Positions 39,001-42,000 of a stretch of 64,000 nt of DNA are shown here, piece after piece (position 1 is the first letter of the stretch; each line of letters opens with the position of its first letter). This stretch comes from a virus. Lineage: Duplodnaviria; Heunggongvirae; Uroviricota; Caudoviricetes. Where the stretch lies: IMG/VR virus record IMGVR_UViG_2913112809_000002; one strand, 5' to 3'. Made by a program: the position numbers.

Positions 39001-42000
39001 GACAAAGCAGAAGTCGAACGGTGGGTGCGACTGCATGAAATAGGTGACTTTCGGGCAGAAATAACACCGCTTTATACAGCCCAACCAGCGCCGGTAGCTC
39101 CAGATGGTTGGATAAGCTGTAGTGATGCAGTTCCTGCGGAATACTGCGATGTGATTCTTCGCGATGATCTCGGGAATGTATTCCCCGGTTCCTGGGATAA
39201 GGTTTTTTGCCCCATTCGTGGCGGGAATAAGATGGCTTTTGTGGACAAAGACGGCATCGAAGTAGAGAGCTCAACTCACTGGATGCCGCTACCGGAACCA
39301 CCGCAGGAGGTGAATCGATGACCTGGCCTGAAGCATTCACAACGGTAGGAATTGCAATGGCGGTGGCGCTGGTGGTGTATTCGATTTGCCGCTGGGGTTG
39401 ACGTAATTACTAATCCGGGGCTATATTTCCGACGCGCCAGCAAAATCTGGCGTCGGGATTAGCACCCCGGATGTTTACGGAGCGATATGAGACGCGCCCG
39501 CGTCTTTTTTTCATATCGTTTGCACAGTCACATTCGCGATTTATGGCGGGCTGTGTGGGGGAGCCGAAAGGCTCGCCGGTTTCCGTACCCGGTAGTGCTA
39601 ACCCCGCACAGTTCGCCACCACGATGATTAGCACCTGACGGTGGCGATAATGTCCAAATGTACGGAGTAATCGTTATGACCACTCAGATTTCTGTCGAAA
39701 CTCTTTCCCCAATTACACACAACCAAATTCCCGTTATCACTACCGAGTTACTGGCACAGCTTTACTGTACCGAGATCAACAACATCAAAGTAAATTACAC
39801 CCGTAATTCCGAGCGTTTTGTTGAGGGTAAACACTTTTTCAAGATTGTTGGTGATGAGTTGAAAAAATTTGCGGGTTACTTTAAGTAACTCACAAACGCC
39901 TGTTTCCCCCAAAACCCGCTCCCTCATCCTCTGGACAGAACGCGGAGCAGCCCGCCACGCAAAAATGCTGGAAACCGAGCAGGCGTGGGAAGTGTTCGAA
40001 AAACTGGAAGACTGTTATTTCAGTCAGAAACGCCCGGAAGAAAAAGCACCGGATTTTATGCCACGCCGCTTTCTTCTCACTCTGGTCAATAACCAGTGGT
40101 ATGTTGAGCCTGTGTCTGCTGATGCGTTTGTGGCAACGCCGGACTCACTGGTGGCCAGGCTTCAGGCCGAGAGATATCTGTTCGATCAGCAGAGCATAAA
40201 GGAGATCATCCAGACCTGCCTGAAGATGATTTAAAAATTCATTCCGATATGGGAATCCCCATATCGGGAGAATATTACCACCGGGGATAAAATGATTTGC
40301 GGTGAAAGGGAAGTTAAGTAGAATTGCTGCGGGTGCTTGAGGCTATCTGCCTCGGGCATGAATACCAACGGCAGATAGAGAAAAGCCCCAGTTAACATTA
40401 CGCGTCCTGCAAGACGCTTAACATTAATCTGAGGCCATATCTATGCGACACATAGAGATTAGCCTCTTACGGACCGAAAGGTCAAGGAGAAGCAGGCTAT
40501 GAAGCAGCAAAAGGCGATGTTAATCGCCCTGATCGTCATCTGTTTAACCGTCATAGTGACGGCACTGGTAACGAGGAAAGACCTCTGCGAGGTACGAATC
40601 CGAACCGGCCAGACGGAGGTCGCTGTCTTCACAGCTTACGAACCTGAGGAGTAAGAGTGACCAGGCGAGGGAGAAATCCCTCGCCGCCTCTGACGTGTCA
40701 GGCATTCTCAAAGCACCCGCACTTAACCCGCTTCGGCGGGTTTTGTTTTTTTCTGGCATTCTGGTTTACAATCCACTCGTCAGCCTGAACAACTGACACC
40801 TGCTGCGCCAGCAGAGAAAACCGATGGCGCAAAATTCCAGACCACACAATTCTGATAATTCAGCCGTCTTTGCCAGCAGGCACGGGCGGCGTTCCCGCAC
40901 ATTCAAATCTGACTGGTTCCAGCACGACCCATGCACTGAAGAACAAGCCGAATGGCTAATTCAGAACTACCGCAGACGTGGGTATGAGTTTCAGAAAGAC
41001 CTCAGTCTTGACTTCCGACACTGGATAATCTCAGTCAGGCTGCCGTACTCCGAGCGCCCACCGCGTCCATCCCGCACATTCCAGCAACGGATCTGGAGGT
41101 AATGTGAGAGCATTACTGACACCTGAAATTGCCCCGCGTATGGGGATCGTACTGTTCAGGCCAGGTTCAGAGCTGATGCCATTGTTTATGCAGGGGCGTG
41201 TCTTGCTGGAGCCTGAGCCGGAACGTTATTCATCTTTTGCCAGTGGTGTCGTTCCGGCGGCATCGCAACCGCTGGCGGATGATCCTGTCGTTCGGGCCGT
41301 ATTCCGCAATGAGGCAGTGATCCGTCGTGCAGGTGGCGTGGAATGCCTTGAAAGCTGGTTACTTCGTGAAAAAGGCTGTCAGTGGCCTCATTCTGACTGG
41401 CACAGCGAGAACATGACCACAATGCGTCACGCGCCGGGAGCAATCCGTTTGTGCTGGCACTGCGATAATCAACTGCGCGATCAGTTCACAGAACGGTTGG
41501 AATCAATGGCAACGGATAACTGCGTCCGTTGGGTGTTGTCTGTTGTCCGTCGGGATCTCGGTTTTGATGAAAGTCACGTTGTGACAATGCCGGAACTGTG
41601 TTGGTGGCTGGTTCGTAATGACCTGGCGGATGCCTTACCTGAAAGCGCAGCCCGTAGGCTCTGAGATTACCGAAGCCTGCTGTGCAGTCTGTCACTCGGG
41701 AAAGTGACCTCGTACCTTCAGTTCCGGCCACCAGCATCATCCAGGATAAAGCGAAAAAGGTGCTGGCGCTGAAAGTGGATCCGGAATCGCCGGAGTCTTT
41801 TATGTTACGCCCCAAACGTCGCCGCTGGGTTAACGAAAAGTACACGCGCTGGGTTAAGACACAGCCGTGTGCATGTTGTGGTAAGCCAGCCGACGATCCC
41901 CATCACCTGATTGGTCACGGTCAGGGAGGGATGGGGACAAAAGCCCACGATATTTTCACGCTACCGCTGTGCCGGGAGCATCACAACGAACTTCATGCTG

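Follow-up and report, generated by a model that had tools for sequence, protein, structure and literature searches.

Among the known systems closest to the locus treated here are the hok/sok pair carried by plasmid R1 and, in the Stx2 phage Sp5/933W group, hokW-sokW, located on Sakai prophage 5. According to the R1 model, the full-length hok mRNA is closed by pairing of its tac and fbi elements, with ucb placed over the Shine-Dalgarno (SD) sequence of mok, while the 3'-processed mRNA forms the tac/ucb and mok SD/dcb pairings and becomes translatable and Sok-accessible, and the nascent transcript is protected by a metastable 5' hairpin (Le Rhun et al., 2022, PMC9841398). R1 genetics further demonstrated that mok translation is required only as far as the hok SD/start (PMC9841398). 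The hokW-sokW pair is a working type I toxin-antitoxin (TA) system: HokW is toxic and is neutralised by sokW expressed from its own promoter, for which RNase III and Hfq are needed; sokW reportedly contains 71 nt complementary to the 5' untranslated region (UTR) of hokW and was detected by northern blotting with the probe YO-592; after mitomycin C treatment sokW disappears and HokW accumulates in the inner membrane; and deletion of hokW-sokW halves phage release, the system helping lysis after induction (Takada et al., 2021, PMC8621323). Here a locus of the same kind is described from the window, a stretch of 64,000 nucleotides of caudoviricete DNA (IMG/VR record IMGVR_UViG_2913112809_000002), where it occupies positions 40319-40752. 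Its hok/sok biology is already known: the family, the RNA switch, the enrichment in prophages and a functional homologue, hokW-sokW (92% identical), have all been published, and the module is an ordinary one, consisting of a gene for a membrane-damaging peptide silenced by an antisense RNA.

The segment 40319-40752 most probably represents a complete, self-contained type I TA cassette of the hok/sok family, hokD/hokW subtype (estimated probability about 0.88), positioned directly 5' of the DUF968-Q late-regulatory genes of a lambdoid prophage. A hok/sok-type type I locus had been proposed here in an original prediction made by reading the sequence, and the proposal was borne out by a Pfam HOK_GEF toxin, an RF01794 leader, a mok open reading frame (ORF) and a putative Sok gene placed by homology. 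The 51-aa Hok ORF, seen in that prediction at the same position, matched Pfam PF01848 (HOK_GEF) with E=1.2e-23 and 82.9 bits (cutoff 22) over 42 of 42 profile positions; its product is hydrophobic at residues 7-24 and has Cys15 and Cys30. The coding DNA is identical to Escherichia coli K-12 hokD/relF, and the identical protein in RefSeq is HokD (WP_000813254.1), annotated in thousands of E. coli genomes. The Rfam search that had been suggested as a check was positive: RF01794 ('sok') matched 40331-40501 on the plus strand over the full model (1-157) with E=8e-22 and 101.3 bits (gathering score 59), which is higher than the score of the R1-type plasmid locus (88.9 bits). The R1/IncF paradigm was represented in this and all other comparisons by a locus from pO145-13516 obtained by tblastn, since a plasmid search by blastn in 'distant' mode had yielded copies of the hokD type only. 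Three further predicted features were recovered as well, namely the short leader ORF that ends by ATGA on the hok start, which is mok, a hairpin near 40340-40380, which is real and has its arms (CTATCTGCC, 40343-40351, and GGCAGATAG, 40370-40378) paired in every fold, and a terminator after hok, with a stem at 40725-40742 followed by TTGTTTTTTT up to 40752.

The cassette is a discrete module. Among the phage matches listed, the homology started at positions 40-69 of the 517-bp query (window 40283-40312), and among the phage and E. coli matches listed it ended at query positions 485-517, mostly 501-507 (window 40744-40750), inside the U-run of the terminator. Cassette-related DNA was present in 79 phage records, and of 5426 complete E. 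coli genomes 4726 had it, as a rule more than once, the best complete E. coli genome having 97% identity across the query, while no genome covered more than 34% of the surrounding 22 kb. The gene order relative to DUF968 and Q is the same in other prophages, where hokD is located in the nin region, downstream of the replication genes and ahead of DUF968-RusA-Q. The elements assigned to the cassette, together with a palindrome located upstream of it, are listed in Table 1.

Table 1. Position of the toxin gene, leader frame, RNA elements and promoters of the hok/sok-type cassette, and of the upstream palindrome (window coordinates).
Feature	Position	Strand	Remarks
Perfect palindrome	40244..40267	.	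10 bp, 4-nt loop; CCGATATGGG 40244-40253 / CCCATATCGG 40258-40267; not in the cassette
hok promoter -10	40319..40324	+	TAGAAT; putative; 6 nt 5' of the GGG 5' end
Full-length hok mRNA	40331..40752	+	predicted, about 420 nt; from 5' GGGUGCUUGAGG to the terminator U-run
tac	40331..40342	+	GGGUGCUUGAGG; pairs with fbi in the full-length fold, with ucb in 3'-shortened folds
Metastable 5' hairpin	40335..40357	+	GCUUGAGGC / GCCUCGGGC; expected in the nascent transcript
Stable 5' hairpin	40343..40378	+	CUAUCUGCC...GGCAGAUAG; in the full-length and both shortened folds
Sok RNA	40379..40450	-	predicted, about 72 nt; 5' tail, long hairpin, UUUUCUCU; ends placed by sokW homology
ucb / anti-SD	40383..40389	+	AAGCCCC; pairs with the mok SD (full-length fold; consensus helix 3) or tac (shortened folds)
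mok SD	40431..40434	+	GAGG; invariant in 36 homologues; 8 nt 5' of the mok ATG
Sok target	40435..40461	+	hairpin UCUAUG-CGACA-CAUAGA with the mok AUG, enclosed by the mok SD/dcb stem
mok leader ORF	40443..40502	+	19 codons (MRHIEISLLRTERSRRSRL); TGA 40500-40502 overlaps the hok ATG (AUGA)
sok promoter	40456..40485	-	predicted; -35 TTGACC (40485 to 40480), 18-nt spacer, -10 TAATCT (40461 to 40456)
dcb	40462..40466	+	GCCUC; partner of the mok SD when the fold is cut at 40713
hok SD	40484..40489	+	AAGGAG; 9 nt 5' of the hok ATG; K-12 hokD homology starts about here
hok toxin coding sequence	40499..40654	+	51 aa; Pfam HOK_GEF; identical to HokD/RelF
Hairpin with TadA motif UACG	40632..40646	+	predicted; CAG-CUUACGAAC-CUG; Tyr47 codon 40637-40639, putatively editable A 40638
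3' stem-loop	40664..40685	+	GGCGAGGGA-GAAA-UCCCUCGCC; would be the protective end of the processed mRNA, by analogy with R1 (PMC9841398)
fbi	40707..40718	+	CUCAAAGCACCC; pairs with tac in the minimum free energy and centroid folds of the full-length mRNA
Intrinsic terminator of hok mRNA	40725..40752	+	7-bp stem, 5 G-C pairs, then TTGTTTTTTT

The folding of the predicted hok mRNA was consistent with the R1 type of RNA switch. The full-length transcript (422 nt) had a minimum free energy (MFE) of -176 kcal/mol (z = -8.0), and none of 100 shuffled sequences was as good. In the unconstrained fold, both the MFE and the centroid structures had the tac/fbi closure plus ucb paired with the GAGG region, whereby the mok SD is sequestered. 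When the 3' end was shortened (cut at 40713 or 40692), the 5' tac moved onto ucb, and with the cut at 40713, albeit not with the cut at 40692, the mok SD/dcb pairing was formed. Thus, as far as the folding model goes, folds of this single sequence reproduce both published R1 conformers. The first 30 nt of the mRNA folded with -18.8 kcal/mol into a metastable hairpin formed by all homologues. The 3' stem-loop appeared in the full-length fold and in the fold cut at 40692. The mRNA 5' end is conserved as GGG[U/C]GCUUG in the 36 homologues described below, and the RF01794 match begins at the same position, 40331. The hok promoter has a weak -35 sequence (TTTGCG, 40296-40301), while its -10 spacing is shared by the R1-type locus (TATGAT-GTGCCC-GGCGC), and -10-like hexamers were found at equal distance from the mRNA 5' end in the homologues; in R1, the hok -10 was validated by mutation (PMC9841398).

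Comparative support came from 53 related loci collected from species representatives, from which 36 full mRNAs of Escherichia spp., Kluyvera, Citrobacter, Pseudocitrobacter, Pantoea and Photorhabdus were aligned. RNAalifold independently predicted the 5'-3' tac/fbi closure, the 5' hairpin and the ucb/SD hairpin, which doubles as the Sok terminator; its further helices were a long-range CUCUUAC/GUAAGAG pairing, one that hides the AUG of hok, the 3' stem-loop and a small UACG hairpin. In the consensus structure 98.6% of the cells were standard pairs, versus 38-45% with the partners slid by 1-3 columns. Changes on both sides occurred at 17 pairs, while shuffles gave 9.9 +/- 1.4 and none of 500 reached 17. 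The relatedness of the aligned sequences is a caveat here, but the control with slid partners is decisive. Position 4 of tac covaried with fbi, being U-A in 23 and C-G in 11 sequences. The metastable hairpin was paired in 96% of the alignment cells, with double changes at 2 pairs; the stable 5' hairpin (consensus helix 2) was paired in 99.7% and had 2 compensatory pairs, and the 3' stem-loop (helix 13) had 3. All 5 pairs of dcb/mok SD were invariant in the 36 sequences, i.e., conserved with no covariation. The UACG tetranucleotide (40637-40640) is located in the loop of the CAG/CUG hairpin, at the position of the second conserved Cys, and the stem of this hairpin covaried as well (C-G in 22 and U-A in 14 sequences; G-C in 22 and A-U in 12). 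In the K-12 hokD mRNA, TadA edits the respective Tyr to Cys at about 6% (PMC5630033, PMC12214031).

The 19-codon mok falls below the 20-aa floor of the ORF lister. The distance between the mok and hok ATG codons among the homologues was 56, 57 or 58 nt, which results in three frame classes: the 56-nt class has a 19-codon mok ending on AUGA (the window, the locus L001 and two hokC-type loci, L014 and L016), the 57-nt class an in-frame Mok-Hok ORF of 68-70 aa (hokW, hokC, Photorhabdus), and the 58-nt class a mok in the +1 frame, which measures 55-69 aa in the chromosomal relatives and 70 aa in the plasmid locus of R1 type. The 19-codon class has at least two independent origins, one among hokD-type and one among hokC-type loci. 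The Mok peptide is not conserved, while the open frame up to hok was kept in all classes. Since R1 needs mok only up to the hok SD/start, a 19-codon mok is compatible with function, and its coupling to hok would most simply proceed by termination-reinitiation. The 88 bp from the mok SD to the hok start, i.e., the allele of mok and the sok promoter, were at least 99% identical in 778 E. coli records, which argues against a one-off defect or private lesion and for a common allele. The three natural frame classes of mok are thereby documented, and the common 19-codon form agrees with the R1 genetic rule. The variable frame and the unconserved peptide, together with the strong SD of hok itself at a 9-nt spacing, might also mean that the 19-codon ORF is incidental and Hok is translated from its own AAGGAG in the opened mRNA, uncoupled from mok. 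This is very unlikely, given that the mok SD was invariant and the position of the mok ATG nearly invariant in the 36 homologues, that in all three classes the frame begun at the mok ATG stayed open as far as the hok ATG or beyond, that mutations in the start codon of mok and stops 5' of hok abolish Hok synthesis in R1 (PMC9841398), and that the predicted Sok covers the mok start and not the hok start.

The original prediction had placed Sok on the minus strand within the leader and considered its ends as impossible to place from the sequence alone. The location and strand agree with our assignment, while the ends could in fact be placed, as predicted ones, by homology with sokW: the 5' end at about 40451-40449 and the 3' end at about 40379, on the minus strand. 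The fold of the predicted RNA (-30.8 kcal/mol, z = -5.0) had an unpaired 5' tail, a long hairpin and then a U-run, and its 5' tail is complementary to the mok start region. The sequence used for hokW-sokW was that of Stx2 converting phage I, to which all mappable primers and probes of Takada et al. (2021) map exactly. The predicted sok -10 of the window (TAATCT) aligns with TAACCT of sokW, which was mutated in the promoter-less construct (primers YO-421/422), and the -35 overlaps the complement of the hok SD. The Sok target hairpin was formed by every homologue despite its variable sequence. The segment 40434-40458, comprising the Sok 5' tail and the target loop, was the least conserved part of the leader among the close hokD/hokW-type relatives (identity 0.62-0.76 versus 0.88-1.0 in the adjacent parts), which would fit a diversification of Sok specificity among co-resident copies in one genome.

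The RF01794 match lies on the plus strand, which taken literally would put the antitoxin RNA at 40331-40501 on the plus strand. The chance of this is close to nil: the match extends from the hok mRNA 5' end to the hok AUG, and matches of the same sense and extent were obtained in hokW-sokW (2547-2721 of Stx2 converting phage I) and in the R1-type locus (342-518). The probe YO-592, which detected sokW, is a hok-sense sequence, and therefore sokW is antisense. A plus-strand Sok was thus rejected, as the RF01794 model, to judge from these sense matches, recognises the hok leader and not the Sok transcript. The strand of an RF01794 match is that of hok and should not be taken as the antitoxin strand.

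Several results speak against the assignment as a complete hok/sok cassette. The NCBIfam Hok models remained below their trusted cutoffs (NF007279: 48.5 versus 73; NF007290, HokA: 40.2 versus 89), which we read as a consequence of strict cutoffs in models made for other subfamilies and not as evidence against membership. A consensus promoter scan gave zero sites on both strands, with the hok and the sok promoters below threshold, and both were therefore assigned from their homologous counterparts in R1 and hokW. With the cut at 40692, the mok SD was paired with a 3' GCCUC and not with dcb; as the folds differ with the cut site, the exact open conformer would depend on the processing site. The Sok target loop has only 5 nt (CGACA) versus 6-9 nt in the homologues, which could slow Sok binding. 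A YUNR U-turn motif, associated with the Sok target loop, is absent from CGACA and apparently also from the hokC-type loops; we treat it as a lead and not, like the results above, as a point against the assignment or as a criterion of membership. The prophage around the cassette is decaying, with an ORF6N-domain gene split into 39658-39888 and 39869-40234 and a DUF968 gene split into 41104-41664 and 41682-42092. Finally, chromosomal hok loci tested by Pedersen and Gerdes gave no post-segregational killing, at least according to the passage citing them in a preprint (bioRxiv 10.1101/2025.08.07.668861).

The decay of the prophage, the reported lack of post-segregational killing in several chromosomal hok/sok loci, a mok that compared to hokW is reduced to 19 codons through a net -1 indel, and the smallest target loop of the homologue set could together indicate an inactive relic, intact in appearance while its killing activity or its regulation is lost, with the short mok and the shrunken loop as signs of decay. 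We regard this as unlikely. All defined elements are present and correctly paired, the hok coding sequence is identical to that of HokD, which is a toxic control on overexpression, and the 19-codon mok keeps the sole part required by R1 genetics; besides, the allele is shared with the 778 E. coli records, and its frame class occurs independently in the hokC-type loci L014 and L016.

The mechanism proposed for the intact cassette is inferred from the R1 and hokW work, with in silico support from folding and covariation. A weak constitutive promoter would produce a stable hok mRNA of about 420 nt, whose 5' end would be held during transcription by the metastable hairpin, as the folds suggest. 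The finished mRNA would be closed by tac/fbi, with ucb over the ribosome-binding site of mok, permitting neither translation nor Sok binding, which is again compatible with the folding results. Slow 3' trimming would then remove the terminator and fbi, upon which the tac/ucb pairing seen in the shortened folds would open the mok start region and form the Sok target hairpin. An unstable Sok of about 72 nt, expressed from the stronger convergent minus-strand promoter, would pair with the target region, leading to a block of mok translation and RNase III cleavage. Upon loss of Sok, the 19 codons of mok would be translated, the hok SD unfolded, and the ribosomes would stop at the UGA in AUGA and reinitiate on hok. 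The 51-aa Hok would enter the inner membrane and cause its collapse, and how toxic it is may be modulated through the recoding of Tyr47 to Cys by TadA. With hokW-sokW as the analogue, the cassette would probably serve a faster lysis after prophage induction, with prophage stabilisation or exclusion of other phages as the alternatives.

A more far-reaching proposal, speculative and on balance improbable, is that the allele of the window represents a distinct regulatory subtype, characterised by the AUGA-terminating mok, the 5-nt target loop and the near-consensus sok -35, in which read-through upon induction occludes the sok promoter and Hok acts as an induction-timed auxiliary lysis factor. 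The cassette is co-directional with early prophage transcription, so that read-through after induction could occlude the convergent sok promoter, and for such a subtype the AUGA-terminating mok would imply an obligatory termination-reinitiation. If true, occlusion of the sok promoter would explain the rapid loss of sokW after mitomycin C.

The perfect palindrome at 40244-40267 had been predicted as one of the leader hairpins. Its 10-bp stem is present as described, while its assignment to the leader failed, as it is located outside the cassette, 63 nt 5' of the putative 5' end of the hok mRNA and 10 nt after the stop codon of the ORF6N gene (40232-40234). No second perfect hairpin with 10 bp or more (loop 3-8) was present in the 64-kb window; after mononucleotide shuffling there were on average 0.45 such hairpins, and at least one in 5 of 20 cases, so that the palindrome alone is only weakly beyond chance. 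In L001 it is conserved, lengthened to a 12-bp stem that encloses AATT, and it again lies 63 nt from the 5' end of hok. A U-run was absent on the plus strand and weak on the minus strand (tail AATGAATTTT). The constant distance in both loci, its uniqueness in the window and a terminator-like score on the minus strand would allow the palindrome to be assigned to the hok/sok unit, be it as a hairpin of the leader or as the site where Sok read-through terminates. We consider this highly improbable and rejected it: the palindrome lies 5' of both the promoter -10 and the conserved mRNA 5' end, i.e., outside the conserved block; all 25 phage matches listed start 3' of it; the predicted Sok has its own terminator hairpin; and L001, the only fetched locus with such a palindrome, carries the ORF6N gene too, with which the palindrome travels. 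It is part of the sequence that flanks the upstream ORF6N gene on the 3' side and not of the hok leader.

Rfam matches 5' of the cassette included c4-a1b1 (39421-39473), isrK (39434-39510) and C4 antisense RNA (39539-39623), followed by the split ORF6N-domain gene, which is antirepressor-like; the region 39421-40234 has the appearance of an antirepressor module under isrK/C4 control whose gene is disrupted. In L001, the ORF6N homologue has an internal stop and carries a pseudogene annotation. At the other side of hok, the two parts of the DUF968 gene correspond to 186 and 136 aa, a further sign of prophage decay, and an intact DUF968 protein of 351 aa is present in E. coli EC21Z-048. The window (1-64000) contains two lambdoid late regions in opposite orientation. 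The minus-strand part (1-30000) includes O (28533-29480), a DnaB-like helicase gene (27160-28536) and tRNAs (22856-23008). The plus-strand part from 30488 starts with a cI-like repressor gene (30488-31195) and a lambda cIII thermometer (34049-34107), followed by hok, Q (42455-43150), tRNAs (43475-43625) and the terminase. An early-left (pL-type) operon thereby runs into the nin/Q/late region, which points to two prophage parts or a rearrangement; the homology with other genomes breaks near 37350-38035, and both ends of the window are prophage DNA. A repeat search over the whole window (seed 16, at least 150 bp) found none, and the two late regions are therefore not near-identical duplicates.

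In other genomes, hok at 96-100% identity was also found on short contigs of Acinetobacter idrijaensis (275 bp) and Xanthomonas pisi (431 bp) and in a 'Candidatus Scatousia' metagenome-assembled genome, most likely resulting from E. coli contamination of the assemblies. A truncation of the K-12 style, with a relE-proximal sequence directly 5' of hok and without tac, mok and sok, was observed in E. coli ECDA1023 and Kluyvera sp. CHPC 1.2972, where in the latter the Hok at the truncated junction is of another subtype (MKQQSWRFITLII...); the age or the mobility of the relBE-hok junction may therefore be greater than one would conclude from K-12. In Shigella flexneri SFBU0723 one hokC-type copy was frame-disrupted, with residues 10-25 reading PDRHLYHRRSGGAGG, and is decayed, while intact copies are present in the same genome.

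Compared to the described systems, the hokC (gef)/sokC-type loci, of which L014-L021 were in the covariation set, have about 80% toxin identity and the same leader architecture as the window cassette, while their Sok hairpin is about 18 nt shorter and they are chromosomal and not prophage-borne; the K-12 hokC was reported to be inactivated by an insertion element. The R1-type locus of pO145-13516 has the same elements in the same order: a -10 located 6 nt before the 5' end GG(G/C)(U)GCUUGAGG, the 5' hairpin, ucb ..AGCCCC and the Sok hairpin, then GAGG, mok ATG, GCCUCUUAC and hok SD, and finally UACG in the C-terminal Tyr codon, GUAAG at the stop, the 3' stem-loop, fbi AAGCGCC and the terminator. 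It differs by a toxin of 52 aa with about 43% identity to the 51-aa protein of the window and by a 70-aa mok in the +1 frame with a spacing of 58 nt instead of 56 nt; the Sok hairpin of the window, on its part, has 16 nt extra relative to the Rfam consensus. Moreover, R1 hok/sok is plasmid-borne with a proven function in post-segregational killing, while the copy in the window resides in a prophage.

Between the 5' end of the mRNA and fbi, the hokW-sokW locus has 91.8% nucleotide identity with the window cassette, and the two toxins agree in 48 of 51 residues; it shares with the cassette tac, the 5' hairpin, ucb, the Sok terminator hairpin, dcb, the hok SD, fbi, the sok -35 and -10 sequences, predicted by homology in the window, and the location in a lambdoid prophage. 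In contrast to the 19-codon mok with 56-nt spacing in the window, hokW has a 70-aa in-frame Mok-Hok ORF (ORF-33c) with 57-nt spacing. In the Sok 5' tail and the target loop there are several substitutions and 3 indels between the two loci, with CUGAACA as the loop of hokW versus CGACA, and the sokW -35 is TTGCCT with a 17-nt spacer versus TTGACC with 18 nt. The toxin ends with VDYESEK in hokW and with TAYEPEE in the window, and the hokW locus is without a matching terminator sequence after fbi and has different flanking genes.

The K-12 hokD (relF, Qin prophage) has a toxin identical to that of the window, a near-identical coding sequence and 3' UTR including fbi and the terminator, the same TadA-editable UACG Tyr codon, and rem, the DUF968-type ydfU and a Q-like gene downstream. 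Its homology with the window, however, begins only at the hok SD, with relE sequence directly 5' of it: relBE takes the place of tac, ucb, the SD and the start of mok, and the Sok gene with its -10, and no RF01794 match was obtained in the K-12 hokD locus, while the cassette of the window has the full leader. With the K-12 reference copy truncated, a practical value of the present analysis is an element-by-element map of an intact hokD-type locus, and the cassette of the window is the intact counterpart of the truncated K-12 hokD.

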